DNA of 64,000 nt from an uncultured Gammaproteobacteria bacterium (lineage in GTDB: Bacteria > Patescibacteriota > Patescibacteriia > S139-126): assembly GCA_964620905.1 (NCBI GenBank), contig CAZUKA010000001.1, positions 90,890 through 154,889 of the forward strand. The letters are read 5' to 3'. The notes under the pieces were generated by a model. The model did not search any database and was not told the origin of the DNA. It saw only the letters and a list, made by a program, of their open reading frames with translations. Position numbers and translations under genes: made by a program. This document shows positions 18,330 to 62,117 of the stretch, in pieces; position 1 is the stretch's first letter, and each line of letters starts with the position of its first letter.

Positions 18330-19176
18330 AACCGCCTTAGCTTTAAGTGGCGGTTTTATCCGCGTGGCAGCTAGTATCGGCGTTTTGCATGAGTTTAACC
18401 TACATAAAATAAATCTAGCCGCCTTGTCCGGATCTTCTTCTGGGGCTTTGGTGGCGGCGGCTTATGGTGCTGGAAAGTTAAAGGAACTAACGGAAATTAT
18501 TTTAGCTTTAAAAAATTTTAAAGATATTTTTATTATCCACCCGGATAAAGAAGCAATTTTTTCCAATGACAAACTAAAATCTTTACTCCTTGAGTTGTTT
18601 GCTGATTTGACCTTTGCTGATTTGGAACATAAAATTTTTATTCAAGCTAGTGATTTGTCAGCTAAAAAAGAAATTTATTTGCACTCAGGTTTGATTAGAG
18701 AAGCAGTTGAAGCAGCACTAGTTATTCCCGGTGTGTTTATGCCTTTAAAACAAAATAATATGGTTTTGATTGATGGCGCGGCTTATGAGCTATTACCAGT
18801 CAGTATTTTAAGACAGAATGGTTATCAGCCAATTTTTGGGGTATTTACCAATCTCAAACCGAGTCTAGCTACTAGGCTACTGGCTGGTTTAAGAAAAAGA
18901 TCAAGCAATTTTGACAAATTGATAAAGCAAAACGTCAAACTATCAGGAAATATGTTTTCTTATATCATAAACGCTCTTGATCAATCCACTTGGCAGTTGA
19001 CTCAGCGATTGGCTATTAGCCACCAAGTAGCTGATTTAGTCATCAGACCAGATTTATATAAAATTGGCCGTTTTGATTTTGATAAAATACCGTCAATGAT
19101 TGCAGCCGGTCGTCGGGCAGCCAGAGCAGCTTTGCCGTTTATTCAAAAGAAAATAAAAGCAAGTGATCCCAGTTGA
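18304..19176 (+). CDS. Patatin-like phospholipase
   Basis: Oxyanion 'SGGFIRV', nucleophile elbow 'GSSSGALVAAAYG' (G-x-S-x-G), catalytic Asp 'DGAAYELLP'. Overlaps the upstream GT2 by 26 nt. Confidence 0.75.
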   Translation: MSANTQSTKTALALSGGFIRVAASIGVLHEFNLHKINLAALSGSSSGALVAAAYGAGKLKELTEIILALKNFKDIFIIHPDKEAIFSNDKLKSLLLELFADLTFADLEHKIFIQASDLSAKKEIYLHSGLIREAVEAALVIPGVFMPLKQNNMVLIDGAAYELLPVSILRQNGYQPIFGVFTNLKPSLATRLLAGLRKRSSNFDKLIKQNVKLSGNMFSYIINALDQSTWQLTQRLAISHQVADLVIRPDLYKIGRFDFDKIPSMIAAGRRAARAALPFIQKKIKASDPS

Positions 19177-19263
19177 CCAAAATATTAATTTTTATTACAC
19201 TATCCAAAGTAAAGGAAATTGAATATCCTTTATTCTTTATTCTAGATTTCAATTCTAATTTAT

Positions 19264-19337
19264 TGGGGGATCGTCTAATGGTAGGACAGCGGCCTTTGGA
19301 GCCGTCAATCGTGGTTCGAGTCCACGTCCCCCAGCCA
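19264..19337 (+). tRNA. tRNA-Gln (anticodon UUG)
   Basis: Acceptor tggggga/tccccca, D-arm gtct-aatggta-ggac, anticodon arm gcggc-ctTTGga-gccgt, T-arm cgtgg-ttcgagt-ccacg, CCA encoded. Confidence 0.85.
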
Positions 19338-19444
19338 CTTCAAAATGCCAATGTTTATTGGTGTTTTTTTATATACCCCTCGTGGACATTAGAACTTTAT
19401 TAATATTTTTTAATAGTGTATTATTAGATATATAAAATATATTT

Positions 19445-20227
19445 ATGAATAATATTGTATCATTATATAACGAAGTGATTAATTATGTACTTGCAGAGGG
19501 CAAGGTTATTGCGGGGAAATGTGGTGTTATACCTGATATAGGTGTGACTAAAAAATATGTAACAGAAGAAGATATCCGTATTGAACGTGAATTAAAAAGT
19601 ATTATTCAAAGTTTTGATTCAAGTCACGAGATTTATGCAGAAGAAGAAAATAATGATTGGAAAGAAAGTAAAAATGTTTGGGTGATTGATCCAATATCAG
19701 GTACGCGTACATTCGTTAAAGGAATTCCTCACTATGGAATGGTTGTCTCGCATGTATTAAATGGGAAACCTCAGTTTGCAGTCGTGTATGATCCATCAAT
19801 TGATGAGTTGTTTAAAGTAACTCGGGGTGGGGGTGCATTTTTGAATGACAAACAGATTCATATGAATAATGATGATAATGAATTTAAATCGATACGATTG
19901 ATACTCAACATGACTCATAAACAATTAGGAAATAATCTTTCAAAAGAAATGATTATGAAATTAAGTGGATCTAATTTGTTTAGGAATTCAAATTCATTTG
20001 CAGTAAATTATTGTTGGGTTGCATGTGGGAGATATGATGGCGTTATAGCTTTAACAAAGGATAGTTTTCCAGAAGTTGCGGGGAGTCTTTTTATTCAAGA
20101 AGCTGGGGGTATATTTACAAATATTAATGGTAATAAAGAGATTGGTCCGGATGATAATTTTTTTGTTGGTGGTAATCAACAGAGTTATGCTCAATTGTTT
20201 GAATTAGTAAAAGATTTAAATAAGTAA
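19445..20227 (+). CDS. Inositol monophosphatase family protein (IMPase/SuhB/CysQ-like), paralog 1
   Basis: 'EEENNDWK...VWVIDPISGTRTFVKGIPHYG' (metal-binding D-P-(I/L)-D-G-T motif). C-terminal 'WD..AG' region present. Confidence 0.8.
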   Translation: MNNIVSLYNEVINYVLAEGKVIAGKCGVIPDIGVTKKYVTEEDIRIERELKSIIQSFDSSHEIYAEEENNDWKESKNVWVIDPISGTRTFVKGIPHYGMVVSHVLNGKPQFAVVYDPSIDELFKVTRGGGAFLNDKQIHMNNDDNEFKSIRLILNMTHKQLGNNLSKEMIMKLSGSNLFRNSNSFAVNYCWVACGRYDGVIALTKDSFPEVAGSLFIQEAGGIFTNINGNKEIGPDDNFFVGGNQQSYAQLFELVKDLNK

Positions 20228-20265
20228 AATTATAAATTCGTCCACAAGCTTCATCCACGATAAAT

Positions 20266-21069
20266 ATGAAAAATTTAAGTCCCATTACTAACTTTCTAAT
20301 TGAGCTTTCAAAAGAAGCATCTGTAATTTTATTAAAGCATTTTTCACCCCTTGGAGTTTTAACAGAAATGAAGGAAGAAATGTCACCTGTGACTAAGGCA
20401 GATATTGAAGTAAACGAGATGGTAATAAAGAAAGTGTGTGATAATTATCCTGAATACGGGGTATTGGCAGAAGAGATATCAACCGATATAACAAAATCAA
20501 ATAAGCTATTTGTTGTTGACCCGCTTGATGGTACACATATGTTTGCGATTGGTGCGACTATGTTTGGTTTTTCGGCTGCTGTTGTCGAAGATGGTGTTAG
20601 CATTGCAGGAGTATTGATGAACCCTCTTGCTAAGAGAACACTTGTTGCTGAAAAAGGTAAGGGGGCATATTTAGTTGAAACACAAACCAAGATTCACGTG
20701 AGTGATAAAGACACTCTGGATCAAGCACTTATAAATGCAGGATGGAAAGATGATCGGGTAACATCTCTTTTACATGCTCTAGGTGCGCGAACGCCCGAGG
20801 TATATTCTATTTGCGAGTCGGCATCTTTAGTAGCACTTTCAGCTTTTGATGGGGATATATTTACTGGACATTATCCCCACGATGTTGCAGCTTTGAAGAT
20901 TGTGGTTGAGGAAGCGGGCGGTAAGGTAACTGATATAAATGGAATGGAACAAAGATATGATAGGGAAATTAGGGGTGCAATTGTTTCTAATGAGAAACTT
21001 CATACCCGGCTTTTAGAGATTGCAAAAAAATCTGGTATTGCGGATGATTTACCAAGTAATAATAAATAG
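20266..21069 (+). CDS. Inositol monophosphatase family protein, paralog 2
   Basis: 'LFVVDPLDGTHMFAIG', 'GHYPHDVAALKIVVEEAGGKVTDINGM'. Close paralog of 23264..24040. Confidence 0.8.
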   Translation: MKNLSPITNFLIELSKEASVILLKHFSPLGVLTEMKEEMSPVTKADIEVNEMVIKKVCDNYPEYGVLAEEISTDITKSNKLFVVDPLDGTHMFAIGATMFGFSAAVVEDGVSIAGVLMNPLAKRTLVAEKGKGAYLVETQTKIHVSDKDTLDQALINAGWKDDRVTSLLHALGARTPEVYSICESASLVALSAFDGDIFTGHYPHDVAALKIVVEEAGGKVTDINGMEQRYDREIRGAIVSNEKLHTRLLEIAKKSGIADDLPSNNK

Positions 21070-21183
21070 TCTATCTACTTGCTTAGTTCGATTCTAACTT
21101 CGTCTACAAGCTTCAGCCACGACTTTTACTTATGCCATTCCTCTAGGAGTGGTTTTTTGATAAAATTAAATAGAAATATAAAT

Positions 21184-22470
21184 ATGAATAAATTGACAAA
21201 AGAGATTAAAGAATTTAGATGGGAGAATCGTGTGTATAGGACCGGATTTTTACAGTCGAAAGATATTTGTAATGAAGCTGAAATTATACCTATAAAACTA
21301 ACTAAAAATTATTTTGTGAAATATCAAAATATTTTTTGGATACAAGACTACAATTTATATGATGAGAATGCAACCAAAAGTTTTGTAAAAGTATTTAATA
21401 AAGCATTCAAAGAAAATAAAAGTTGGCCTTTAAGTCTTTTTTATGAATTAGAGAGAACTGGAAAGAAAGTAAATAATTTTATTACTAAACTAAAAAAGAA
21501 TAAAAACAAGACAAGTCTAATATTGTTTAGAGAATATGTAGAATTATTACACGCTGTACAAAAGTATTATGTTATTGCTGTACCACTTGTTAGTTATTGT
21601 GAAAAAGCTTTAAAAATATATCCAAAAGTATTAGAAAATTATTCCAAACCTTATAAAGAACTCGAAGTTAGTAAATTTAATTACTCAAAAAATACAAAAT
21701 TAAAATTTGCTTGGTTAAAAACTGCTTACAATATTATTGATGAAGTCTCAGATAAAGATGTATTACAAATGAATACAAAAAAAGATTATAAAGAGAAAAT
21801 TTTATTAATTCCAAAAAGAATTAAATATTTAGTAGTCGCGCTACAAGTAGGTATATACTTACGTAATCGAATAAAAGAATTGTCTCAAAAATTATGGTAT
21901 TATATCGAACCCGTAGCAAAGCAACTCGCAAAGGAAATGAAAATTTCTCGTGACGATTTTTTTCTTTTAACTCACCAAGAAGTTGAACAATGTTTAAAAG
22001 GAAATGGTTATATCAATTCGCCTGAATTTGCTAGACGAAGGAAGTCTTTTGTTGTGGGTTTTTGGAAGGGTAAAAAGCAGCTTATATCAGGTACCGAGGC
22101 AAGTTCGTTAGTAAATGTATTTAGAAATAAATCAAAATCTGGAGATTATGTGAAGGGAACGGTGGCATATAAAGGCAAAGTAAAAGGAATAGTAAAAATT
22201 ATTTTAGATAAAAAAGATTTTAAAAAAATTAAAAAAGGGAACATTCTTGTTACATCAATGACCACTCCAAATTTTATTGTATTGATGAAAAAAGTGGCAG
22301 CAATTGTCACTGATGAAGGTGGTTTGTCATGTCACGCGGCGATCGTGAGTCGAGAATTGAAAATACCTTGTATTATTGGCACCAAAGATGCAACTAAAAT
22401 TTTATCAAACAGGGATTATGTTGAAGTGGATGCAATCGATGGTATAGTAAGGGTTTTAAAGCGAGGGTAG
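21184..22470 (+). CDS. Protein with a C-terminal PEP-utilizing enzyme mobile (swivel phosphohistidine) domain; N-terminal ~330 aa of unknown function
   Basis: 'GGLSCHAAIVSRELKIPCIIGTKDATKIL' matches the G-G-x-(T/S)-x-H-A-A-I-x-(A/S)-R-E-x-x-I-P signature of PEP-utilizers. Start taken at 'MNKLTKEIK' (21184); the ORF-track start at 21079 reads through an upstream repeat motif. Confidence 0.6.
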   Translation: MNKLTKEIKEFRWENRVYRTGFLQSKDICNEAEIIPIKLTKNYFVKYQNIFWIQDYNLYDENATKSFVKVFNKAFKENKSWPLSLFYELERTGKKVNNFITKLKKNKNKTSLILFREYVELLHAVQKYYVIAVPLVSYCEKALKIYPKVLENYSKPYKELEVSKFNYSKNTKLKFAWLKTAYNIIDEVSDKDVLQMNTKKDYKEKILLIPKRIKYLVVALQVGIYLRNRIKELSQKLWYYIEPVAKQLAKEMKISRDDFFLLTHQEVEQCLKGNGYINSPEFARRRKSFVVGFWKGKKQLISGTEASSLVNVFRNKSKSGDYVKGTVAYKGKVKGIVKIILDKKDFKKIKKGNILVTSMTTPNFIVLMKKVAAIVTDEGGLSCHAAIVSRELKIPCIIGTKDATKILSNRDYVEVDAIDGIVRVLKRG

Positions 22471-22588
22471 ATCTAACTGTGTCAATTAAATGCGGTTACA
22501 TTTTTTACTTCATATTTATTGATGTTTTTTGTATTAATTTAATACTTTTAAAACTTTGTTAATTGTCTCATGTGGTGTAATATAATTT

Positions 22589-23230
22589 ATGAATATAGAT
22601 AAACTCGCTAAAATTATTTGGGAATATCATAAGATGCATCAAAAGTTAAAAAAGGTTGATTGTATTTTTGTACTTGGTAGTAATGACGTAAGGGTAGCGG
22701 AATATTCCGCTGATATATTTTTAAAAGGATATGCGTCAAATATAATATTCTCAGGAAATGTAGGAATATTGAGTAAAGATATTTTTGATAAACCAGAAGC
22801 AGAAATTTTTGCTGATATAGCTATTAAACACGGTGTCCCAGAACAGAAAATTATTATTGAAAATAAATCAACGAATACTGGTGAAAATATAATATTTACG
22901 AAAAAAATAATTAGTGAACTGGGTTTTAATTTTGATTCATTTATATTAGTTCAAAAACCGTACATGGAACGACGTGCTTATGCAACATTTAAAAAAATAT
23001 GGCCTGAAAAAGATTGTATAGTTACTTCTCCACCTATTAATTATAAAGATTATCCAAATCAATATATTTCAAAGGAAATGTTAATTAATATTATGGTTGG
23101 TGATTTACAAAGAATAAAAATATATGCATCCAAAGGGTTTCAAATATCTCAGGATATACCAAAGGAAGTTTGGCAAGCCTATGAAAAGCTTGTTCATTTA
23201 GGATATACCAATCATTTAATTAGCAACTAA
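22589..23230 (+). CDS. DUF218 (YdcF/ElyC/SanA-like) family protein
   Basis: 'IIIENKSTNTGENIIFTKKII' fits the conserved E..S.nT.eN block of DUF218. Confidence 0.55.
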   Translation: MNIDKLAKIIWEYHKMHQKLKKVDCIFVLGSNDVRVAEYSADIFLKGYASNIIFSGNVGILSKDIFDKPEAEIFADIAIKHGVPEQKIIIENKSTNTGENIIFTKKIISELGFNFDSFILVQKPYMERRAYATFKKIWPEKDCIVTSPPINYKDYPNQYISKEMLINIMVGDLQRIKIYASKGFQISQDIPKEVWQAYEKLVHLGYTNHLISN

Positions 23231-23263
23231 TTTTAAGATATTTTATTTTAATAATATTTATTT

Positions 23264-24040
23264 ATGTATAACCACAAAAATTTTGCAATCAATTTAGCCC
23301 GCGAAGCTGGAAAAATTATTAAAACCAATTTTACACTGGGGATGAAAAAAGAATGGAAAGATGATAATACCCCGCTCACGGCAACTGATTTAAAGATAAA
23401 TCAAATGGTAATTGATGCTGTAAAAAAAGAATATCCTAGTTTTGGTATTATTGCCGAGGAGGGTAGTGATTATTCTAATCAAGAATATACTTGGGTTTGT
23501 GATCCGGTTGATGGAACCATTGCTTTTTCTCACGGTGTACCGACATGTATGTTTTTATTGGCTCTGGTTAAAGAAGGTAAAAGTATATTGGGCGTTGCTT
23601 ATGATCCGTTTATGGATAATATGTATTTTGCTGAAAAGGGTAAAGGTGCTTTTTGCAATGATAAAAGTATTAGAACATCGGGACATACAAAACTTGATTC
23701 AAAAGCAGTAATAGATACATTACTTTGGAAAGAAGCTAAATATCAGTTCCCAAGATTAGTTGATAATTTAAGAGAAAAAGGGGTATTAGATTTTAGTTTG
23801 CCCTCGATAGGTTATGTTGATATGTTGGTTGCTTGTGGTGAGTTTACTGCAAGTATTTTTCCAGGACATTATGCATGGGATGTAGCTGTAACAAAAATAA
23901 TAATCGAAGAAGCCGGGGGAAAAGTAACTGATCTTTATGGCGAAGAATTTGATTTTAGGAATGAAGTAAAAGGACATATTGCATCTAATGGATTGGTACA
24001 TGCTGAATTATTAGAACTAGTACAGACGTATTTAGAATAA
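23264..24040 (+). CDS. Inositol monophosphatase family protein, paralog 3
   Basis: 'YTWVCDPVDGTIAFSHGVP', 'GHYAWDVAVTKIIIEEAGGKVTDLYGEE'. Confidence 0.8.
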   Translation: MYNHKNFAINLAREAGKIIKTNFTLGMKKEWKDDNTPLTATDLKINQMVIDAVKKEYPSFGIIAEEGSDYSNQEYTWVCDPVDGTIAFSHGVPTCMFLLALVKEGKSILGVAYDPFMDNMYFAEKGKGAFCNDKSIRTSGHTKLDSKAVIDTLLWKEAKYQFPRLVDNLREKGVLDFSLPSIGYVDMLVACGEFTASIFPGHYAWDVAVTKIIIEEAGGKVTDLYGEEFDFRNEVKGHIASNGLVHAELLELVQTYLE

Positions 24041-24071
24041 ATTTGAATTTTTTTAAATATTAAATTTTTAT

Positions 24072-25052
24072 ATGAAAATAATGATTAAAGATTTAGAAAA
24101 TTGTTGTGTTAAGATTTTAATGAAAAAAGGGCTTTCTAAAAAAGAGGCTCTTCTTGTTTATAACGATTTTTTAGACTCTGAGCTAGAAGGAAAACCAGAT
24201 CACGGATTCCAGTCTTTTTTGGAATTTGGGATTAAATTAGTACAACCACAAGAAAGACCTAAAATTATTAAACAAAGTAATTCTTTTTTATTTATTGATG
24301 GTAAAAACAACTACGGACAAATTGTTTGTGATAAATATATACCCATTCTAATTAAAAAAGCTAGGAGAAGCGGCGTAGCTATTATGGGTATAAAAAATAT
24401 GCATTCATATCGTTCTCCTGGCAAATTCGCACAAATAATAGCTAAAAAAAATTTAATTGGAATAATAATGAATTATGGTGGTTGGCCAAGAATAGCACCT
24501 TATGGATCTATTGATCCTATTTTTGGAACCAATCCAATCGCTATAGGTATTCCTTCTAAAAATTTTCCTGTGGTACTTGATATGGCAACTTCAAAAGTAG
24601 CCCTAATGAAGATAAGAATGGCTATGAAATTAAGAAAAAAAATTCCTTATGGTTGGGCAATTGATAAAAACGGAGAACCAACCAATGATCCAAATAAAGT
24701 TTTTGAAGGAGCAGTTTTACCGTTTGGAGAACATAAAGGATCAGGATTAGCTTTGATGGTAGAGTTATTAACCAAAACAATTTATAGTATAAATATCAAT
24801 GATAGAAATAAAGCAAACAGAGGATTTTTATTTATATGTATAGACCCTTCAATTTTTCAAAATATAAATAAATATAAAATTGAAGTAGAAAGAGTAATTA
24901 GAAAAATTAAAAAGTCGAGAAAAGCAAAAGGAAAAAGTGAAATTTTTATTCCTGGTGAATATTCTTATAAAAAATTTTTAAAAAATAAAAAAAGAAAATA
25001 TATTGAGATTGATAAAAAAACACTTTTTGAAATTAGATCTAATTCGCTTTGA
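24072..25052 (+). CDS. Ldh_2-family (malate/L-lactate/L-sulfolactate dehydrogenase-type) oxidoreductase
   Basis: 'NPIAIGIP', 'LPFGEHKGSGLALMVELLT' typical of the Ldh_2 family. Confidence 0.7.
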   Translation: MKIMIKDLENCCVKILMKKGLSKKEALLVYNDFLDSELEGKPDHGFQSFLEFGIKLVQPQERPKIIKQSNSFLFIDGKNNYGQIVCDKYIPILIKKARRSGVAIMGIKNMHSYRSPGKFAQIIAKKNLIGIIMNYGGWPRIAPYGSIDPIFGTNPIAIGIPSKNFPVVLDMATSKVALMKIRMAMKLRKKIPYGWAIDKNGEPTNDPNKVFEGAVLPFGEHKGSGLALMVELLTKTIYSININDRNKANRGFLFICIDPSIFQNINKYKIEVERVIRKIKKSRKAKGKSEIFIPGEYSYKKFLKNKKRKYIEIDKKTLFEIRSNSL

Positions 25053-25069
25053 TGTAAAGTTTATTTAAT

Positions 25070-25717
25070 TTGATTTTTATGGAATATATTTTAGGAGTTC
25101 ATATACCAATACCACCCAAGCTGGCAAAATTAATTGTCTCGGTTAAAAGTAAAAATTATATTAATTATCCGGGAAATTATAAATATCAACCACATATAAC
25201 AATATATCTTTGTAGATTTACAAAAGAAAAATTTAGAAAATTATTGAGAAATCTAAAAACAAATAATATTAAATCATTTGTATTGAAAATAGGTAAACTT
25301 AAACAACAAAGTGATGGCAAAATATTATTTATATATTTGTCGCTAGTTAAAAACGAATATCTAATTTCATTCCATAAATATATTTTAAAAATGGCCAACC
25401 CATTACGTGGTATGTTAATAAGATCAAAAGATAAAATTAAGATAAAGTCAGGAGACTATACAAATATTCAAAAAAGATATTTGCTAAAATATGGGTACCA
25501 TCGAGTTTTAAAATTTTTTATTCCTCATATTACCTTAGGTGAATTAGCTGCAAATGATATTAAAAAATTGAAACATTTAAAAAGTGATTTAAATAAATTA
25601 AAAGGAATTGAGTTTAGAATAAATTATTATATCGTCGGTTTGTATAAATATGACATCAAAAAGAAAGATTATTGTGGTACTGTAATAGAAGAGAAAATTG
25701 ATTTGATATTTAATTGA
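25070..25717 (+). CDS. 2H phosphoesterase superfamily protein (LigT/2'-5' RNA ligase-like or cyclic phosphodiesterase-like)
   Basis: Two H-x-T-x motifs: 'QPHITIYL' and 'IPHITLGE'. Confidence 0.55.
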   Translation: MIFMEYILGVHIPIPPKLAKLIVSVKSKNYINYPGNYKYQPHITIYLCRFTKEKFRKLLRNLKTNNIKSFVLKIGKLKQQSDGKILFIYLSLVKNEYLISFHKYILKMANPLRGMLIRSKDKIKIKSGDYTNIQKRYLLKYGYHRVLKFFIPHITLGELAANDIKKLKHLKSDLNKLKGIEFRINYYIVGLYKYDIKKKDYCGTVIEEKIDLIFN

Positions 25718-25745
25718 TTTAAACTTTTTCAAACGAGTAATGACA

Positions 25746-25775
25746 TAAAAAAATCGCCAAACAAGCGATTTTTTG
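25746..25775. terminator. Bidirectional intrinsic terminator at the end of the low-GC islet
   Basis: aaaaaatcgc-caaacaa-gcgatttttt. Confidence 0.6.
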
Positions 25776-25808
25776 CTATAATTAAACAATATTATTAAAC
25801 ACAAACAG

Positions 25809-27410
25809 ATGGAAGAACAAAATTTTATGAGTCAAATTCCCATGGAAAACCAGGAAGTCCAAGTAAAGCCAAAGAGCCACTGGCCAAAAAGGATTTTAGT
25901 TATTCTAGTATCCTTATTGGTTTTAGGTGGGGTAGCTTATGGCGGTTGGTATGGGTACGAAAATTATTGGCCAGGAAGTCCAGAAAAGGTTTTTTGGCAA
26001 GCTTTGCAAAACTTTCAAGTGAAAGACCAAATGTCAATTGCTGGTGAAGTTAATGTTATTCTTACCAAGCTTAAAACCACTACCAATTCTGGCGCGGCAG
26101 GAGTAATGGTTGATATGTTGACTGGGGAAGATCAAAATAAGTTTAAATTTGTCTATCAAACAAAATATGACAATTCCCAAGTAGACAATTTTTTATCTGA
26201 ATCAAGCTTTGACATCCAAGCTGATAATTTATCTTTGTCAGTATCAGCACGGACAATGGAAAAATTTTTGTATTTTAAAGTTTTACAGGCTGATTTGTTT
26301 TTATCCGAACTGGGTATGATGCTACCTGATCAGTGGGTTCAGGTTGATCTAAAAAAAGAGGCACAAGAATTTTTATCCGGACAAGGAATACTGTCAAATG
26401 ACAAAGAAGAATCACCACTGGAAAATATTTTCCAGGCGGCTTATGAAGCTAAACCGTTTATTTTGCAGACAGTTGATCGATCGGACAATACCTTAGGCAA
26501 GTCAGCTTTTGTATATACTTTACAGTGGCAACGGGAAGGATTTGATTTGATGTTGCTAAAATTTGCTGCTTTAGAAACCAATTCCGATAGGCGAGAATAT
26601 TTATTGGATCGTTTAGAACCTTTGGATGACAAAGAGTGGGAAATTTTGCAAAAAGTAAAAGTAAAAATTTGGGTAACTAAAGACGATAAATTGTTGCGCC
26701 AACTGGAGATAAAATACAATAGTGATGAAAAAAGTCTGGGTGCCAATATTGATCTGACCTTTTTAACCAATATTCAGCCTTTGACTGAACCATTGCAAGT
26801 AGAAAAACCCGTTGATTTTTTGACTTGGGATCAACTTTTGGAGCAACTAATGGGTCCCAGTTTAAGCAAATCCCGTGATGCTAAACGTATAGCAGATATC
26901 AAACAAATTCAGACAGCACTTGAACTCTATTTTGCTGATAATAACACCTATCCAGTGGGTTTAAATTTGGCTTTACATAACGGCTTAATGTTTTGTGGTG
27001 ATAAAAGTATTGCACCCCGCGGTTTTATAGCGGTTGACTCTGGATGCATTTCTGATGCACCTTTTTCACAGCGGCCAGTTTATATGAATATAGTACCGCA
27101 AGATCCTGATTTTAGTGCAAGACAATATATTTATACTTCTATCAAATCAGATCAGTATGGTATAAAGTGGCAAATAGACTCTACTGTGGGTGGTTTGCCG
27201 GCCGGGGTGTTGTATGCGACACCAGAAGGTATTGTGCCAGCAAAATCAGAAATTATTGATAGTGACAATGATAGACTGAGTGATGATGATGAAAAGTATC
27301 TTTATCTAACCAATCCGAACAGTCAGGATTCTGATGGTGATGGTTATTTGGATGGTGAAGAATTAAACAATGGTTATAATCCATTGGGAGCAGGTAAGTT
27401 GAGTTTATAG
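25809..27410 (+). CDS. Membrane-anchored surface protein with an internal pilin-like motif and C-terminal calcium-binding (thrombospondin type-3-like) Asp repeats
   Basis: N-terminal TM 'RILVILVSLLVLGGVAYGGWYGY'. 'SRDAKRIADIKQIQTALELYFADNNTYPVG' resembles the pilin/pseudopilin globular-domain start. 'DSDNDRLSDDDE...DSDGDGYLDGEE'. Confidence 0.5.
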   Translation: MEEQNFMSQIPMENQEVQVKPKSHWPKRILVILVSLLVLGGVAYGGWYGYENYWPGSPEKVFWQALQNFQVKDQMSIAGEVNVILTKLKTTTNSGAAGVMVDMLTGEDQNKFKFVYQTKYDNSQVDNFLSESSFDIQADNLSLSVSARTMEKFLYFKVLQADLFLSELGMMLPDQWVQVDLKKEAQEFLSGQGILSNDKEESPLENIFQAAYEAKPFILQTVDRSDNTLGKSAFVYTLQWQREGFDLMLLKFAALETNSDRREYLLDRLEPLDDKEWEILQKVKVKIWVTKDDKLLRQLEIKYNSDEKSLGANIDLTFLTNIQPLTEPLQVEKPVDFLTWDQLLEQLMGPSLSKSRDAKRIADIKQIQTALELYFADNNTYPVGLNLALHNGLMFCGDKSIAPRGFIAVDSGCISDAPFSQRPVYMNIVPQDPDFSARQYIYTSIKSDQYGIKWQIDSTVGGLPAGVLYATPEGIVPAKSEIIDSDNDRLSDDDEKYLYLTNPNSQDSDGDGYLDGEELNNGYNPLGAGKLSL

Positions 27411-27419
27411 TAAAGTTTT

Positions 27420-28163
27420 ATGGAAACAGGTTCAGTATTGACAGTCAAGAATATTAGCAAAAATTATAAATCAATTCGCGCCGTAACTGACGTTTCTTTT
27501 GGAATTTCTCAAGGAGAGGTTGTTGGCTTGCTTGGACCGAATGGGGCAGGTAAAACTACTATTATCAATATAATTTTAGGAGTATTGGAAGCAAGTATTG
27601 GGGAGGTAGAAATTTTAGGAAAAAATTTAAGAACTGATCGATCAGTGATGTCGCAAATAAATTTCGCCGCGGTTTATGCTCAATTGCCTGGCAATTTAAC
27701 CGTTTGGCAAAATCTCTACATTTTTGGCTTATTGTATGGAGTCGTTAATTTAGCAGGACGGATAAAAGAACTATTGTCAGATTTAGAACTGGAAAATTTT
27801 GCTCAAACCAAAGTAGGACTTTTATCTTCTGGTGAGCAGACTAGGGTATCTTTAGCTAAAGCTTTGCTCAATCAACCAAAATTACTACTACTTGATGAAC
27901 CAACTGCATCGCTTGACCCTAGTAGTGCCCAGGTGATACGGGCGAAGATAAAAGATTATGTGCAACAGACAAATTCGGCTGTGTTGTGGACTTCACACAA
28001 TATGCACGAAGTGGCAGCAGTTTGTGATCGGGTAATGTTTATTTCGCGTGGGCAAATCTGTTTGGCTGGTAATCCTCGTGAACTACCCGTAGCTTATGGG
28101 AAAAGAGATTTAGAAGATCTTTTTATCGCAGTAGCCAGAGAAAATTTAAAAGTCAAAATATGA
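27420..28163 (+). CDS. ABC transporter ATP-binding protein
   Basis: Walker A 'GPNGAGKTT', signature 'LSSGEQTRVSLAKAL', Walker B 'LLLDEPTASLD'. Confidence 0.85.
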   Translation: METGSVLTVKNISKNYKSIRAVTDVSFGISQGEVVGLLGPNGAGKTTIINIILGVLEASIGEVEILGKNLRTDRSVMSQINFAAVYAQLPGNLTVWQNLYIFGLLYGVVNLAGRIKELLSDLELENFAQTKVGLLSSGEQTRVSLAKALLNQPKLLLLDEPTASLDPSSAQVIRAKIKDYVQQTNSAVLWTSHNMHEVAAVCDRVMFISRGQICLAGNPRELPVAYGKRDLEDLFIAVARENLKVKI

Positions 28164-28966
28164 ATTTCCGGCGAGTTTATGCAATATTTATACGCCAACT
28201 TTTTTTGATCAGGCATAACTTTACCAGACTGGTAAATATTTTTGTTTGGATAACTGTAGATATAATTTTGTGGGGTTTTATTACCCGCTACCTTGATTCA
28301 GTTACAGCTGTTGGATTTAGTTTTGTACCGGTTTTATTGGGAGCGGTAGTTTTGTGGGATTTTTTAATTCGTATTCAACAAGGAGTGATGCTGGCTTTTT
28401 TTGAAGATATGTGGCAGCGGAATTTTTTTAATTTTTTTGCCTCACCTTTGACTATTCCTGAATATGTTACCGGGTTGGTTATAACAAGTATTATTACCAG
28501 TTTTGCAGGATTAGTAGTAATGTTGGGGCTGGCACTGCTTTTATTTGGTTTTAATATTTTTGTTCTGGGTGGTAGTTTAATCTTATTTTTACTTATTTTA
28601 TTTTTATTTGGTTTGACTTTGGGTATATTTGCGGCCGGGGTAGTGTTGCGTTTTGGTCCGGCAGCGGAATGGTTTGTCTGGCCAATTCCATTTATCATTT
28701 CACCATTGGCGGGTGTTTTTTATCCCACCACTGCTCTACCAGATTTTTTGCAAAATTTTGCTAGTTTAGTACCGCCAGCCTATGCTTTCAATGGCTTGCG
28801 TCAGATTTTACAAACCGGACAAATTCCTGGTTTTGAACTTTTGGTTGGTATTGGTTTAGGATTGGTTTACTTGTTTTTTGCTTATTTATTTTTTGTTCGA
28901 ATTTATAAGTATGTTATTCGAAGTGGTTTAATTTCTCGTTTTACAGCAGAAAATACTTCCAACTAA
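28160..28966 (+). CDS. ABC-2 type transporter permease
   Basis: Six TM helices. Translationally coupled (ATGA overlap) to the upstream ATPase. Confidence 0.65.
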   Translation: MNFRRVYAIFIRQLFLIRHNFTRLVNIFVWITVDIILWGFITRYLDSVTAVGFSFVPVLLGAVVLWDFLIRIQQGVMLAFFEDMWQRNFFNFFASPLTIPEYVTGLVITSIITSFAGLVVMLGLALLLFGFNIFVLGGSLILFLLILFLFGLTLGIFAAGVVLRFGPAAEWFVWPIPFIISPLAGVFYPTTALPDFLQNFASLVPPAYAFNGLRQILQTGQIPGFELLVGIGLGLVYLFFAYLFFVRIYKYVIRSGLISRFTAENTSN

Positions 28967-29026
28967 TTTTTTTAAAATTTTTTAAAGAAAAAGGCTTTTT
29001 TAGTATAAAGAATTTAAAAATTAAGA

Positions 29027-29055
29027 TTGACAAACTAGAAACAATTTAATATATT
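29027..29055 (+). promoter_or_regulatory. Candidate sigma70 promoter for the 29114 ORF
   Basis: ttgaca (29027-29032), 17-nt spacer, tatatt (29050-29055). RBS aaggag 8 nt before the ATG at 29114. Confidence 0.4.
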
Positions 29056-29113
29056 TTTATAATCGTTTCCTTAATAATTAATCCTAACAATCAAAAATCA
29101 AGGAGTACTCATA

Positions 29114-29584
29114 ATGAAATCAAAACACTCTGTATCAGTGGAACAAGTATTTTCTCTCCTGCAAGAGAAGACACCGTGTTGTGAAATAAAGAACGAACAA
29201 ATAAAATGTTCGGCCGCTTTTCATAGCCATCGGTACTGTTATGATCTTTTTATAAAAAAACAGCAAAATGATTTTTCTTTAGTTTTCATGGATACCGAAG
29301 AGGTAAAAAGTCCAGTTGATATATTAGTTGAAGCCGGTATATTTTTTACCGAATTAAATATTTCTGAAAAAAATATTATCCAAAGGGCTGGTAGTGTACA
29401 AGTAATAGTACCGAGTACAAAAATTGTTCCAGTTTTAAAAAAATTGAATATTTATTGTCCGCAAGACGACGAAACAATTTTATTGCCGGAGGATTTTACC
29501 GGCCTAAGTAAAAAGCAGATTGACAATAAATGTTTAGAAATTGAAGACCTGGATGATTTTGATGAAAATTACAATATAGTATAA
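29114..29584 (+). CDS. Hypothetical protein (156 aa, Cys/His-rich N-terminus)
   Basis: Good RBS, own promoter and terminator. 'CCEIKNEQIKCSAAFHSHRYCYD' could be a metal-binding motif. No family recognised. Confidence 0.5.
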   Translation: MKSKHSVSVEQVFSLLQEKTPCCEIKNEQIKCSAAFHSHRYCYDLFIKKQQNDFSLVFMDTEEVKSPVDILVEAGIFFTELNISEKNIIQRAGSVQVIVPSTKIVPVLKKLNIYCPQDDETILLPEDFTGLSKKQIDNKCLEIEDLDDFDENYNIV

Positions 29585-29588
29585 AAAT

Positions 29589-29613
29589 AATCCCGCAAAT
29601 TTTGCGGGATTTA
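29589..29613 (+). terminator. Hairpin terminator (tcccgc stem)
   Basis: aatcccgcaaa-t-tttgcgggatt, then ttt. Confidence 0.5.
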
Positions 29614-29677
29614 ATATTGACAAAAAATATCAGTGGTTGTAGATTGAGTTGACTTAGCAATTAACAAAAATATAGGA

Positions 29678-29938
29678 GTGAAAATGTTCTTTAAAAAATT
29701 TATTGCCCAAAACGGCGATACCTACATATTTGTGGGTGCAAGTGTAAAAGCTATTATGCGTGATACAAATTTTGGCACCGGTTTTGCTGGTGAAGAATTT
29801 ATAAAAAGTGAAAGTTTGACTTTTCATCAAGTGATGCATCTCAAGAATCTTAAACACTATCAGTCGGGGATAGAAGCCATAAACAAAGGCACCCCAAGTT
29901 ATCTGATTGCTATTTTAGATCCGGGCGACTCAATTTGA
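29678..29938 (+). CDS. Hypothetical small protein (84-86 aa)
   Basis: RBS 'taggagtg' upstream. Flanked by promoter-like ttgaca (29617) and a strong terminator. No family recognised. Confidence 0.4.
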   Translation: MKMFFKKFIAQNGDTYIFVGASVKAIMRDTNFGTGFAGEEFIKSESLTFHQVMHLKNLKHYQSGIEAINKGTPSYLIAILDPGDSI

Positions 29939-29950
29939 GTCGCTTTTTTT
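29925..29950 (+). terminator. Rho-independent terminator
   Basis: gcgactcaa-t-ttgagtcgc followed by ttttttt. Confidence 0.65.
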
Positions 29951-30026
29951 AATTTTAAAAAAATTTATTATGAGGTGTAGTAAAAATTGACTAAAAATAT
30001 TAAAATAAAGAAAACAAGGTAAATCT

Positions 30027-30935
30027 ATGAAAAAAAACAAATACCAGTGTGAAGTGGTTGATATTATCACCCCCAATAAAATTCTTTTAAACGGTTTGTG
30101 GTTTGGTACCCAGGCGGCTAAATTTGGTTTTATTTATGTTCACGGTCTGGCTAGTAGTGTTTTTTCCAAGATCGATTTGTTGACTTCTTTGGCAGGAAAA
30201 AATTTTTCTGTTCTCGCTATAAATACGCGTGGCCATGATAAAGTGACTAGAGTGCCAAAGCTTGATAAACGTACTAATAAAGGTTATCGTAGTCTTCGTG
30301 CCGGGGGAGCACATGAAGTTTTTACTGAATGTAAAGATGACCTAGCTGGAGCAGTTGAGTTTATGTTGGCAAGAAAAATAAGAAACATTTATTTGATCGG
30401 ACATTCGACTGGTTGCCAAAAATCAGTATATTATTTAGCGGTAGGTAAGCATAGAGAAAAAGTAAAAGGAGCAATTTTACTTTGTCCGATGAGTGATTAT
30501 GCAGCGGCGGTTAAATTTTTTGGACAAGAGAAATTGAAAAAAATTGCTAGTCTTGCTAAACAAATGGTCCACCGTGGTCAAAAACATCATCTTATACCGC
30601 TTGATTTGTGGCCAAGCTATGATGATGCCCAACGATTTTTAAGTTTGTATACCGCCCATAGCCATGAGGAAATATTTTCTTATGTAACTGCTCACAAAAA
30701 TCCAAAATTTTTAATTGGCGTCAAAAAGCCATTATTGGTGGTGTTGGCTAGTGAAGATGAATATCAAGATCGACCAACCGAACAAATAGCCGATTGGTTT
30801 AAAAAATATTTGTCTAGCACTAGTAGTCGTGTTGTTATTTTGACCAATGCCAAACATTCGTTGTCTGGTTATGAAGTAACAACCGTGAAACTGATCAGAA
30901 GCTGGCTAAATAATTTTAAAAACAAAAAATATTAG
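30027..30935 (+). CDS. Alpha/beta-fold hydrolase
   Basis: Nucleophile elbow 'LIGHSTGCQ' (G-x-S-x-G). 'FIYVHGLASS' oxyanion region. Confidence 0.65.
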   Translation: MKKNKYQCEVVDIITPNKILLNGLWFGTQAAKFGFIYVHGLASSVFSKIDLLTSLAGKNFSVLAINTRGHDKVTRVPKLDKRTNKGYRSLRAGGAHEVFTECKDDLAGAVEFMLARKIRNIYLIGHSTGCQKSVYYLAVGKHREKVKGAILLCPMSDYAAAVKFFGQEKLKKIASLAKQMVHRGQKHHLIPLDLWPSYDDAQRFLSLYTAHSHEEIFSYVTAHKNPKFLIGVKKPLLVVLASEDEYQDRPTEQIADWFKKYLSSTSSRVVILTNAKHSLSGYEVTTVKLIRSWLNNFKNKKY

Positions 30936-31035
30936 ACCAAGTTTTGACCCTAGCTAAGCATTTGCCAGAAAAAAATGTTTTAGCTAAATTTGTCAATTGA
31001 TCTTTTTTGAAAATTAAGCTAAATTTAGTTTAAAT

Positions 31036-32652
31036 ATGGCCAACGAAACCAATAAAAAAGTTTACACTTTGTTTTTACCACTTTTGGAGTTAATTCGGGT
31101 TTTTGAAAAAACTGCCCAAATTGAATTACCTCCCGAAGATTCGCGTCTTAGACTGAATCGCGTGGTTTCTAAGATCTCATTTTTTTATGAAAAGTTGAGA
31201 AACGCAGTTGATTATGCAGACGATCATTTACTTCGCGAACGGGCAATTTTGCGTAATCTTAAACGCACTCTGACCTTACCCAATCGCAAAGGAAATTTGA
31301 TAGCTAAACCTTTGGTTTATGACTTGATTCGTGCTGGTTATTTGCCCAATGATCAGTTACCCGAAGCAATTGTTGGAGAAACTGAAAAGTTGATTGATCG
31401 TTTTATATTATTGAATGATTATATTGGCAGTTATAAAGAAAAACAGGAAAAGGTAGTTTTATTTGATTTTTTACTGCCACTACTAGCGATTGAAATTGAC
31501 GATTTATTGGTACCCAAAGATCGCGATAATGCCTTGGTTGAATGTATGTATCAAGTGGTAAAAAAAGATGTAGTAGTAACTGATACCCGATTTAGTGAGA
31601 CGGATAAAAAAATTCAATTATACGTATCAATCTTACTTTCTTTAATGAAACATGATGAAGCCAGAGTCAGTTTTTATTTATTGCTTCTGTATATACCACA
31701 CTGGAGTCAAGCCACTGATAAGGAAGTATTGTTGATAGCCCAAAATATTGGTGATATTCATACCAAAATTAAGCGTCAAATAGAAAATCCGTTGCGCAAT
31801 TTGTATATTCGAATTTTACGCAAATACAATGTTTTATTTTTAATTATTCGGGATATAATCCAAGAATATCCATTGCAAGCTTTGGAAATTTGGAAACAGC
31901 CATCGTTACTTGAAGAGCGGATTAGGCAAGCAGCCAAACGAAGATATAAGATTTCTCGAACCAAACTGACTCGTAGTATTATTCGCAGTATTATTTATTT
32001 GTTTATAACCAAAATGATTTTGGCGGTTTTGTTGGAATTTCCGCTTGATTTAATGTTGGAAACAACTATCAATTATACTACGGTAATTATCAATGTTTTA
32101 TTTCCGCCAATGCTGATGTTTATAATTGGTCTTTTCATTCGAGTACCGGGTATAAAAAATACTGATAAAATTGTCCAAGGTATCAAAGAAATATCTTATC
32201 AGTTTGAGGAGCGTAATGTGATTAGGAAAATAAAAAAACCCATTAAACGAAGCGTACTTATGACCAGAGCTTTTCGTTTTGTCTATGCAATAATTTTTAT
32301 TTTTACATTTAGTTTGATTGTCTATGGCTTAGATTATCTAGGATTCAATATCGCCAGTATGGTTATCTTTTTATTTTTCCTTAGCGTAGTATCATTTTTT
32401 TCAATCCGTATTTCACAGTCAGCCCGGGAATTGCATATTGTAGAAAAAAAAGAAAACATTTTTACTTTTATCAAAGATTTTTTATCATTACCAATTTTGG
32501 AATCAGGCCGATGGTTGTCAGCTAAATTAAATAAGATTAATTTTTTTGTAGTATTTTTTGATTTTATTATTGAAGCACCATTTAAAGTAATAGTGGAAGC
32601 AATCGAAGAGTGGACCGGCTATGTCCGAGAGAAAAAAGAGGATATTTATTAA
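31036..32652 (+). CDS. Hypothetical protein: ~310-aa soluble N-terminal domain plus 4-5 C-terminal TM helices
   Basis: Long ORF with coding-like composition. No recognisable motif (no Walker A or HExxH). Confidence 0.5.
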   Translation: MANETNKKVYTLFLPLLELIRVFEKTAQIELPPEDSRLRLNRVVSKISFFYEKLRNAVDYADDHLLRERAILRNLKRTLTLPNRKGNLIAKPLVYDLIRAGYLPNDQLPEAIVGETEKLIDRFILLNDYIGSYKEKQEKVVLFDFLLPLLAIEIDDLLVPKDRDNALVECMYQVVKKDVVVTDTRFSETDKKIQLYVSILLSLMKHDEARVSFYLLLLYIPHWSQATDKEVLLIAQNIGDIHTKIKRQIENPLRNLYIRILRKYNVLFLIIRDIIQEYPLQALEIWKQPSLLEERIRQAAKRRYKISRTKLTRSIIRSIIYLFITKMILAVLLEFPLDLMLETTINYTTVIINVLFPPMLMFIIGLFIRVPGIKNTDKIVQGIKEISYQFEERNVIRKIKKPIKRSVLMTRAFRFVYAIIFIFTFSLIVYGLDYLGFNIASMVIFLFFLSVVSFFSIRISQSARELHIVEKKENIFTFIKDFLSLPILESGRWLSAKLNKINFFVVFFDFIIEAPFKVIVEAIEEWTGYVREKKEDIY

Positions 32653-32686
32653 AAATTGATGTTTTTATAAAATTGTCTAATAACGG

Positions 32687-32715
32687 TTGACAAAATCCGT
32701 TTTTTTTGCTATACT
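32687..32715 (+). promoter_or_regulatory. Candidate sigma70 promoter for the CAP-domain gene
   Basis: ttgaca (32687-32692), 17-nt spacer, tatact (32710-32715). Confidence 0.5.
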
Positions 32716-32755
32716 TATTAGTTAATAAAATATTTGCTATAATATAATTAGCATT

Positions 32756-34123: not shown

Positions 34124-34146
34124 GCTCAAAAAGTAATTATTTTTTA

Positions 34147-34179
34147 GTCCGAAGGGCAATCCCTTCGGACTTTGCTTTT
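34147..34179 (+). terminator. Rho-independent terminator
   Basis: gtccgaaggg-caat-cccttcggac, then tttgctttt. Confidence 0.7.
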
Positions 34180-34228
34180 ATGGCTGTTTTGTGTTAAAAT
34201 TTTTATGAATTATTATTTTTAAAATAGT

Positions 34229-59632: not shown

Positions 59633-59983
59633 TTAAAAACTTATTTTTGGGCTAATATCGCTGTCGATAGAGTCTTGATTATTTGTAACTGTTAGATTTC
59701 CAGAAAAAATATTCTTAAAGTTGTCCCAGTTAATATTTTTAGTCTGGGTTTTTATTTTAAATTTATTTTCAACTTGTTCGAGTAAACGTATATCAACAGT
59801 AGATGGGGCAATATCAGATTGCAGGATAATTATTTGTTTAGCAGAGATTATAGTTTGATAGAAATTATAGTATAAAAATAAACCAACACCAGTTACAATT
59901 AAGATTGAAAAAAGTATAGTTAACGTTTTGATATGATTTAATAATGTATTTTTTAATTTTTTGAAAGTAGTGATGATTTTCAT
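59633..59983 (-). CDS. Hypothetical single-TM protein, last gene of the pilM-N-O cluster
   Basis: TM 'LTILFSILIVTGVGLFLYY'. Operonic position after the pilO-like gene. Confidence 0.35.
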   Translation of the reverse strand: MKIITTFKKLKNTLLNHIKTLTILFSILIVTGVGLFLYYNFYQTIISAKQIIILQSDIAPSTVDIRLLEQVENKFKIKTQTKNINWDNFKNIFSGNLTVTNNQDSIDSDISPKISF

Positions 59984-59987
59984 ATAG

Positions 59988-61053: not shown

Positions 61054-61057
61054 AAAG

Positions 61058-62104: not shown

Positions 62105-62117
62105 ATCTATATTATAA

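Follow-up and report, generated by a model that had tools for sequence, protein, structure and literature searches.

A probable composite, strain-variable islet of accessory enzyme genes at the tRNA-Gln 3' end of a Paceibacter-like bacterium

The DNA under study (hereafter the window, a 64-kb stretch of contig CAZUKA010000001.1) belongs to a Paceibacter-like bacterium (Minisyncoccota) of the candidate phyla radiation (CPR) and lies on a genome contig of ~0.7 Mb. Directly 3' of a tRNA-Gln(UUG) gene it carries a block of seven enzyme genes (19338-25780, + strand). Three belong to the inositol monophosphatase (IMPase) family, here numbered IMPase1 to IMPase3, and the others encode a protein with the mobile swivel domain of phosphoenolpyruvate (PEP)-utilizing enzymes, a DUF218 protein, an Ldh_2-family dehydrogenase and a 2H phosphoesterase. 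Probably (at about 0.62 by our own estimate), recombination recurs at this tRNA-Gln gene and the block is a composite accessory islet that varies between strains, and neither one island nor one pathway. A first-pass annotation of the same DNA had described it as one horizontally acquired island; this is partly borne out, in that the DNA behind the tRNA is flexible and at least partly non-vertical, most clearly in its 5' 3.86 kb, but the block is no single unit, and its three 3' genes are common to two close relatives.

The segment behind tRNA-Gln and its relatives

The close relatives are represented by the contigs L007 (JGI 3300009868, 57 kb) and L008 (SRR34646264). Both align with the window over 19006-19383 and 23241-35057, at a nucleotide identity of 96-97%, and have nothing that corresponds to 19384-23240 (blastn). 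Their tRNA-Gln is followed by the same terminator hairpin and, after ~45 nt, by IMPase3; it does not run into the gene at 25809, the direct neighbour that the first-pass annotation had proposed to look for in relatives, and the insert is missing. The 3857 bp with IMPase1, IMPase2, the swivel gene and DUF218 (+ strand, GC 0.307) are a presence/absence polymorphism between near-identical genomes. None of the four insert proteins has a cluster partner at 90% identity in a collection of ~15 billion proteins. IMPase3, the Ldh_2 dehydrogenase and the 533-aa protein encoded downstream of the block have one to three other cluster members each (>90% identity), on contigs of four relatives in total. The tRNA gene marks a synteny breakpoint, where a few accessory enzyme genes are turned over among strains of ~96% identity.

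The remaining 2.5 kb of the block (23241-25780), with IMPase3, Ldh_2 and the 2H gene, are intact in the window and its close relatives and occupy the same place. Ldh_2 is under purifying selection, with 32 synonymous and 12 non-synonymous codon differences to L007. IMPase3 (18 synonymous, 20 non-synonymous; 94.6% amino acid identity) and the 2H gene look to be under relaxed selection. The latter is the most diverged gene (L007 2244-2882; 90% nucleotide and 84% amino acid identity; 21 synonymous, 34 non-synonymous), which suggests relaxed or diversifying selection. The nearby ABC-2 permease gene differs from that of L007 by 30 synonymous and 0 non-synonymous changes.

The window is not uniform in composition. 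In the GC-normalised tetranucleotide profile, the 3-kb window 19501-22500 is the strongest outlier of the 64 kb (r = 0.465, z = -9.2); the three 3' genes have z of about -2 to -3 and the pil region -2.2. Low GC is by itself not diagnostic, because native genes of the pilM/pilO region (59.6-61 kb) are equally AT-rich, and the tetranucleotide profile is the better signal. The block 19338-25780 has a GC content of 0.295, compared with 0.347 in the remaining window. The drop was first described as extending from the tRNA to the terminator at the block end. A truly low-GC stretch does exist at 21.0-26.0 kb (GC 0.26-0.32), but it does not start at the tRNA: the 1-kb windows at 19-20 kb and 20-21 kb have values of 0.334 and 0.370, and IMPase2, with 0.382 the highest of the block, lies above the window mean of 0.347. 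The distinct codon usage noticed in the first pass was borne out by counting. GC at third codon positions (GC3) is lower in the seven block genes than in the 54 other open reading frames (ORFs; Mann-Whitney p = 5e-5), AGA and AGG make up 66% of the Arg codons in the block and 32% elsewhere, and ATA accounts for 37% of the Ile codons, against 24% elsewhere. A second AT-rich stretch of the window (59633-62161, - strand, GC 0.24-0.29) contains genes of type IV pilus assembly, with pilM, a gene resembling pilO and small ORFs without annotation.

The tRNA 3' end also served to scan the species representatives of GTDB for more distant loci. Three of the four loci recovered are related to the window at about genus level, namely L014 (Candidatus Paceibacter sp.; DYGA01000003.1), L026 and L036; the fourth, L035, comes from Veblenbacteria. 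As far as the loci extend (that of L036 starts inside FtsE), the first three keep tRNA-Thr, tRNA-Gly, DPBB, FtsE (92-96%), FtsX (85-89%) and an identical tRNA-Gln, whose 74-mer recurs unchanged in L007 as well. The gene order is kept in L035 as well, where the proteins are less identical and tRNA-Gln has another sequence; downstream of the tRNA this locus, too, diverges. Past tRNA-Gln, L036 continues with a 114-aa ORF, a NUDIX gene, the gene for tyrosyl-tRNA synthetase and others; L026 has an extra 270-aa ORF and then the 114-aa ORF and NUDIX gene as in L036; and L014 has genes for an alpha/beta hydrolase and a VTT protein. Neither the block genes nor the gene for the 533-aa flank protein were found in L014, L026 and L036 within the 2-6.6 kb readable past tRNA-Gln. 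The first-pass annotation had named a block syntenic and vertically inherited across the lineage as the finding that would speak against an island; instead, these three loci carry other genes after tRNA-Gln. We infer that the 3' side of tRNA-Gln is a synteny breakpoint, or recombination hotspot, with different cargo in each lineage.

Some further observations concern these loci. The 270-aa ORF of L026 (1885-2697, no Pfam match) is missing at L036 1350-1400 and represents a second, independent indel at the tRNA-Gln site. L026 (CAZBLW010000001.1) and L036 (CAZINS010000004.1) are labelled Gammaproteobacteria; with FtsE and FtsX 85-96% identical and a gene order that matches the window, these labels look wrong. 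A metagenome scan with the full tRNA-Gln 74-mer returned one short contig, L038, which resembles L036 and extends only 241 nt downstream of the tRNA. Its positions 1-90 form a GC-rich end unlike the remaining contig and may be a chimeric contig end.

Insertion scars and the origin of the segment

The first-pass annotation had noted that neither an integrase nor a direct repeat remains. No integrase was found among the ORFs scanned here either, but repeats are present: a 32-nt direct repeat around IMPase2, a putative displaced tRNA end, and a 26-nt repeat at the edge of the variable segment.

The 32-nt repeat (28/32 identical) tightly brackets IMPase2 (20266..21069, +), with copy 1 directly 5' (20229..20260, +) and copy 2 directly 3' of the gene (21091..21122, +). 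Its 24-mer core occurs only at these two sites in the window, with 0 occurrences expected in shuffles. At up to five mismatches, a search of all fetched loci recovered the repeat in the window and in L001 alone, and it is therefore neither a dispersed repeat nor a conserved leader. A tandem duplication of IMPase1/IMPase2 with their 3' flank was considered as its source and rejected, since the two genes are 23% identical and the repeat 88%, and non-coding DNA would not outlast coding sequence.

The end of copy 2 (CAGCCAC) is followed by a CGA-T-rich trailer and a hairpin with a T-run (21134-21153, +; fold -11 kcal/mol), which we call the type B terminator. The whole of 21114..21166 (+) aligns with the tRNA-Gln 3' end, trailer and terminator of L026 at a local alignment score of 58, compared with 26 +/- 2.8 (maximum 36) in shuffles. 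By its sequence, this element would be an old tRNA end and terminator displaced by 1.78 kb from the functional one, with IMPase1 and IMPase2 between them. The functional tRNA-Gln (19264..19337, +; ARAGORN; Rfam tRNA 61.6 bits) is followed by a different hairpin with a T-run, the type A terminator (19342..19367, +; fold -8.5 kcal/mol, z = -3.5), which also stands 3' of tRNA-Gln in L007, L008 and L014. The 10 nt between tRNA-Gln and terminator (19338-19347) read CTTCAAAATG in the window and CGATTTTACA or CGATTTTTCA in L007, L008 and L014. The CGA-T-rich type of trailer recurs at the displaced relic at 21120-21130.

The imperfect 26-nt direct repeat has its left copy at the edge of the variable segment (19371..19396, +; ATATACCCCTCGTGGACATTAGAACT) and its right copy (23203..23229, +; ATATACCAATCATTTAATTAGCAACT) where the DUF218 gene ends, overlapping its 3' part. 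When the 64 kb are probed with the left copy, the right one ranks joint best, the fraction of positions scoring at least as well being 0.00125. The empty site of L007/L008 holds a single copy.

A comparable arrangement is found in L039 (CAYYDR010000002.1; 6435-6760), a more distant Parcubacteria relative. It has two perfectly matching copies of the 19-nt tRNA-Gln 3' end (6490-6508 and 6697-6715), which enclose a GC-rich insert of 207 bp, with a terminator hairpin of its own after each copy. L039 displays the architecture of the window in a cleaner state and has a textbook att-type scar with almost no cargo.

These features would fit a history in which DNA was repeatedly inserted just past the tRNA-Gln 3' end. 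One insertion would have shifted the older tRNA 3' end, trailer and terminator downstream to their present place at 21114-21166; another would have set IMPase2 between the two 32-nt copies. The entire 3.86-kb block would then have been gained in this lineage, either by site-specific recombination at the 26-nt repeat through a trans-acting recombinase or by homologous replacement after DNA uptake, a deletion of the block in the sister lineage being the less likely alternative.

The islet resembles genomic islands that target tRNA genes in its position directly 3' of a tRNA, its atypical composition and its variation between strains; the putative displaced tRNA 3' end and the imperfect edge repeats may be further points of likeness, as may the 19-nt duplication in L039. 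It differs from them in that it has no integrase or mobility gene, comprises 3.9 kb or 6.4 kb in all, and has short, degenerate repeats; moreover, IMPase2 is typical of the host lineage and the 3' part is fixed in close relatives. Flexible islands of streamlined bacteria are exchanged by homologous recombination in conserved flanks. With these the islet shares the conserved FtsEX/tRNA-Gln anchor, the lineage-specific cargo of accessory enzymes and the lack of mobility genes, while its size of a few kb and its scars, typical of site-specific insertion, set it apart from flexible or hypervariable islands as known from metapangenome work on Prochlorococcus (PMC5804319). IMPase2, as a single gene tightly bracketed by a 32-nt repeat, also recalls an integron cassette; the resemblance is superficial, as the islet has no integron integrase and no attC-like imperfect inverted repeat and comprises one unit only. 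In the literature, no description of tRNA-linked islets in CPR bacteria was found. The islet is an ordinary genomic one and opens no new biological question. It provides a clean, small case of gene turnover in an ultra-small CPR genome without obvious mobile elements, and is usable as a marker in strain-resolved work on these organisms.

Several observations weigh against a composite islet built up by insertion at a hotspot. No integrase, transposase or other recombinase was detected in ~55 of the 61 window ORFs scanned (the seven block genes and ~48 others). The tRNA-derived part of the relic is short, with ~7 clear bases (CAGCCAC). A probe made of the window's own tRNA 3' end and trailer gave no significant second copy downstream, and the relic is recognisable solely via the trailer and terminator of L026. 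The 26-nt copies are degenerate, with 19 matching positions and two gaps between them. Only 2-6.6 kb past tRNA-Gln are readable in L014, L026 and L036, which leaves the older part without a defined right-hand limit, and L001, the only other assembly of the insert (an identical contig from SRR10807893), covers 20003-22916 and spans neither junction. Finally, the host-like GC content of IMPase2 and its Parcubacteria orthologues fit an ancestral presence and a deletion in L007/L008, and L039 likewise has an IMPase2 orthologue and a PEP-utilizers gene 3' of FtsEX/tRNA-Gln.

The last two points belong to an alternative course of events, in which the four-gene segment is ancestral and L007/L008 lost it by deletion between the 26-nt repeat copies. 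Low GC and odd codons would then be due to relaxed selection, acting on accessory genes of low expression in a small genome with AT bias, and not to a foreign origin. One such deletion would yield the L007 arrangement, and the single 26-nt copy of L007/L008 is hybrid-looking. The graded series of Parcubacteria orthologues of IMPase2 is compatible with this course, as are its orthologues 3' of FtsEX/tRNA-Gln in L039 and, in part, in L041, the PEP-utilizers gene of L039 following two genes on. The same holds for the equally AT-rich native pil-region genes and for the differences of IMPase3 and 2H to L007, where non-synonymous changes roughly equal or exceed synonymous ones. We consider such a loss possible yet rather unlikely. 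The tetranucleotide z of -9 lies far past that of any other region, the pil genes included, and the insert proteins are singletons at 90%, in contrast to the shared genes with their one to three further cluster members. L014, L026 and L036 are without block genes in their readable parts, and the PEP-utilizers protein of L039 matches the swivel domain alone and is not an orthologue. Furthermore, IMPase2 is 71% identical to its copy in L039, while FtsE and FtsX of the window and L039 are 59% and 39% identical; this excess suggests exchange and not co-inheritance of IMPase2.

A gain of the segment in this strain is the course that we moderately favour over its loss. In addition to the points just given, the tetranucleotide anomaly coincides with the variable segment, and the best homologues of the swivel protein belong to a group that contains archaea, which we count as another point for gain.

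It is very improbable that the 3.86-kb segment is an assembly chimera, in which DNA of another organism from the same sample was joined into the contig. Such an origin would explain that the segment is compositionally deviant and missing from relatives, and the sole independent contig, L001, crosses neither junction. However, the segment holds an L026-like trailer and terminator and a Parcubacteria-type IMPase2, it is internal to a contig of 716,806 bp, and its boundaries at a repeat, with a single copy at the relatives' empty site, have the look of a real insertion or deletion.

A bolder extension of the insertion history, which we regard as speculative and improbable, is that the tRNA-Gln(UUG) 3' end of Paceibacter-like CPR bacteria serves as a dedicated landing site for tiny cargo units without an integrase. 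Such units may consist of single genes or a few hundred bases, with short repeats around a core of ~7 nt (CAGCCAC), and their mobility may depend on a recombinase gene located elsewhere or on an undescribed mechanism. The displaced tRNA end, the 32-nt and 26-nt repeats and the 19-nt duplication of L039 would fit it.

Gene linkage and the question of a common pathway

That the whole 6.4 kb (19338-25780) are one horizontally acquired island whose seven enzymes act in one pathway is quite unlikely on the present evidence. The arrangement itself invites this interpretation, since the seven genes share one strand, follow each other closely and are framed by a tRNA and a terminator, GC3 is lowered over the entire block, and every product acts on phosphate esters or a 2-hydroxyacid. 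Moreover, 2'-nucleoside monophosphates (2'-NMPs) are hydrolysed by IMPases, and 2'-phosphates arise when 2H enzymes open 2',3'-cyclic phosphates. A short salvage route via the 2H protein and IMPase3 is thus conceivable, though gene linkage lends it no support. On the other side, the block divides into a strain-specific and a shared part. IMPase2 and Ldh_2 each belong to a graded series whose named members are all Patescibacteria or Parcubacteria, and the swivel protein comes without its ATP-grasp half.

Transcription and gene neighbourhoods argue in the same direction. The predicted intrinsic terminator at 21134-21153, 3' of IMPase2, splits this gene from the swivel gene, and the gaps around the swivel gene measure 114 and 118 nt. 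The likely transcription units, as predicted from the sequence, are IMPase1-IMPase2, the swivel gene, and DUF218-IMPase3-Ldh_2-2H. A promoter scan was uninformative in this AT-rich DNA (35 sites, compared with 40 in shuffles). Neighbourhoods of homologues were read in L002-L006, L009-L013 and L039-L044; L002-L006, L009-L013 and L039-L042 were searched with all block proteins by tblastn, and L043 and L044 were judged from Pfam gene tables. In 12 independent neighbourhoods, covering the orthologues of three genes, no co-occurrence of block genes was found save that of IMPase2 with a non-orthologous PEP-utilizers gene in L039.

The neighbours differ from gene to gene. Homologues of the swivel gene are accompanied by thymidylate and folate genes in an archaeal context (L004-L006) or form three tandem paralogues (L002, 6367-11284); no ATP-grasp partner is evident beside any of these or beside the homologue at L004 10001-11353. 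The Ldh_2 homologues (67-75% identical) of L009-L013 neighbour methyltransferase genes, genes of a cyclic oligonucleotide-based antiphage signalling system (CBASS) and toxin-antitoxin genes. In L011 (3653-6183), RelB/YafQ genes lie close to the homologue (67%), and a CBASS-like pair (SAVED, SMODS/AGS_C) is found a few kb away; other CPR genomes, too, seem to have Ldh_2 genes of this clade in their variable regions. Orthologues of IMPase2 are found two genes from a PEP-utilizers gene and near NUDIX in L039, near NUDIX in L041, with MarR, PurD and the gene for aspartyl-tRNA synthetase in L043, and with DHH/DHHA2, hemerythrin and NUDIX in L044. A NUDIX gene thus lies a few genes away from three of the four IMPase2 orthologues examined. 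In L044 (7052-8804), the orthologue (68%) directly follows the gene of a DHH/DHHA2 (NrnA-like) phosphoesterase. A small protein seemingly shared beside IMPase2 orthologues (177-aa ORFs in L039 and L041) was dismissed, as the two are not homologous.

We infer that independent accessory enzymes have accumulated here, their seven genes forming at least two or three transcription units. The common theme of phosphate chemistry has no support from gene linkage. The single phospho-sugar, cyclitol or metabolite-inactivation route at which the first-pass annotation had guessed is quite unlikely in view of the unrelated orthologue neighbourhoods and the internal terminator. As a caution, gene adjacency in CPR genomes should not be taken as evidence of a pathway.

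The encoded proteins and the flanks

All seven + strand genes called in the first pass stand, as do the families given for them (Inositol_P three times, PEP-utilizers mobile domain, DUF218, Ldh_2 and LigT/2H in Pfam and NCBIfam); the start of the swivel gene had to be corrected. The three IMPases had been described as paralogs. They all belong to the Inositol_P family (PF00459; 123, 128 and 167 bits for IMPase1, IMPase2 and IMPase3 against a cut-off of 27); with pairwise identities of 23%, 26% and 38%, however, they are by their sequences members of different IMPase subfamilies and not recent duplicates. None of the three reaches an NCBIfam equivalog cut-off.

IMPase1 (19445..20227, +) carries the motifs DPISGT and FPE and lacks the canonical DPxDGT/WDxxxG metal motifs. 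Its subfamily is small: of 1.84 billion cluster representatives, 42 match at E <= 1e-30; in ~90% of its members the second Asp of DPxDGT is replaced by Ser, and WDxAAG has become KDxFP. Within the IMPase/FBPase/SuhB/HisN/CysQ superfamily, where IMPase2 and IMPase3 keep the metal motifs, IMPase1 differs in that its subfamily conserves DPISGT and lacks a WD motif; this suggests that the metal site is altered or the function non-canonical. IMPase2 has the motifs DPLDGT and HD. Its orthologues form a graded series of 73%, 71%, 68% and 67% identity, the named ones from the Parcubacteria group, and the DHH/DHHA2 and NUDIX genes near some of them hint at a nucleotide-related role, e.g. in the hydrolysis of adenosine 3',5'-bisphosphate (pAp) or 2'/3'-NMP. 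IMPase3 (23264..24040, +), a canonical IMPase/FBPase-like phosphatase, has DPVDGT and WD, and its best solved relative is the Thermotoga IMPase 2P3N.

The swivel protein (21184..22470, +; 428 aa) most likely starts at ATG 21184 and not, as first annotated, at TTG 21079, because the terminator hairpin would lie inside the ORF from TTG and the protein has 428 aa in public gene calls. In the longer, 463-aa ORF, the Pfam PEP-utilizers mobile domain (PF00391, 86 bits) spans residues 384-455. The catalytic histidine, His384 in GGLSCHAAIVSRE, is invariant across 33 homologues. The AlphaFold2 model (pLDDT 89) has two domains. Over both of them, the best Foldseek match is the Listeria rifampin phosphotransferase (RPH) RPH-Lm (5FBS/5FBT/5FBU; E 1.2e-10 to 2.0e-10, query-normalised TM-score 0.50-0.53, >500 aligned columns). 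By sequence the swivel domain resembles archaeal PEP synthase, the profile of the family matching 8A8E at 1e-40. Pfam and NCBIfam detect no ATP-grasp domain, the NCBIfam RPH matches covering RPH residues 691-864 only. An ATP-grasp/PPDK_N (HpeI-like) partner is encoded neither next to the gene nor in the ORFs scanned across the 64-kb window. HpeH is the swivel and substrate-binding subunit of the two-component dikinase HpeHI and requires the ATP-grasp subunit HpeI (PMC12167813); the domain layout of RPH has been described as well (PMC4844700). In the model, the swivel protein shares with HpeH and RPH a RIF-binding-like helical domain and a C-terminal His-swivel with the invariant catalytic His. 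It differs from RPH by the lack of an ATP-grasp domain and a sequence identity of ~14-18%, and from HpeH by the lack of an adjacent HpeI-like gene. The fold suggests that it is an orphan HpeH-like half, substrate-binding and phosphohistidine-bearing, of a split dikinase of the RPH/HpeHI type, and it would require an ATP-grasp partner encoded elsewhere.

The best homologues of the swivel protein (49-52% identical) form a group that includes Nanoarchaeota, Woesearchaeota and a contig with archaeal context; named CPR homologues are 39-43% identical. The family, with members of 420-460 aa, is patchily distributed over DPANN archaea (Nanoarchaeota, Woesearchaeota, Micrarchaeota) and CPR bacteria, which interleave in a neighbour-joining tree. 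A search of viral contigs with the family profile gave matches to the swivel domain only and no full-length relatives, and thus no sign of a phage origin. Part of the wider interest of the islet lies in this orphan half-dikinase family common to CPR bacteria and DPANN archaea. A weaker and improbable suggestion is that such HpeH-like orphan swivel proteins and IMPase-type phosphatases may take part together in an undescribed phosphoryl-transfer cycle.

The DUF218 protein (22589..23230, +; YdcF-like, Pfam 73.9 bits) has E. coli YdcF (3CA8, E = 3.7e-9) as its sole solved relative. The Ldh_2-family NAD(P)-dependent 2-hydroxyacid dehydrogenase (24072..25052, +) matches its Pfam model over the full length (279.7 bits, cut-off 38.8). 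Its closest solved relative is the L-sulfolactate dehydrogenase ComC (2X06, E = 4e-53); type-2 malate/lactate dehydrogenases belong to the Ldh_2 family as well. In contrast to ComC, the protein remains under the cut-off of the sulfolactate dehydrogenase equivalog NF040650 (233.8 bits, cut-off 500) and belongs to a clade of graded homologues whose named members are all Patescibacteria; an exact-sequence look-up of the protein returned no record. Coenzyme M biosynthesis was rejected as its function, given this score, the absence of coenzyme M families among the other six genes (Pfam/NCBIfam) and the unfitting CPR context. The 2H (LigT-like) phosphoesterase (25070..25717, +; Pfam LigT_PEase 32.4 bits, cut-off 23.3) has both HxT motifs, as HIT at residues 42 and 153, and its gene has the lowest GC content of the block (0.228). 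The 2_5_RNA_ligase2 model stays under its cut-off, and no solved relative was found by sequence.

With Rfam at E <= 1, the tRNA alone was detected over 18800-26300, with no riboswitch, other RNA or partial tRNA at the repeats. A bidirectional terminator had been proposed for the end of the block, and a terminator-like hairpin is indeed predicted at 25748..25774; it folds on both strands (-9.4 kcal/mol on +, -11.4 kcal/mol on -; z = -4.9 and -3.8) and has A and T runs on either side. The description of the flanks as cell-division and envelope genes likewise proved right. Upstream lie genes for a peptidyl-prolyl isomerase (PPIase), a DPBB protein, FtsE, FtsX, a GT2 protein and a patatin, the last without a relative in the genome collection. 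A TSP3-repeat protein and an ABC-2 transporter are encoded downstream, and the remainder of the 64 kb consists mostly of envelope, polysaccharide and cell-division genes.

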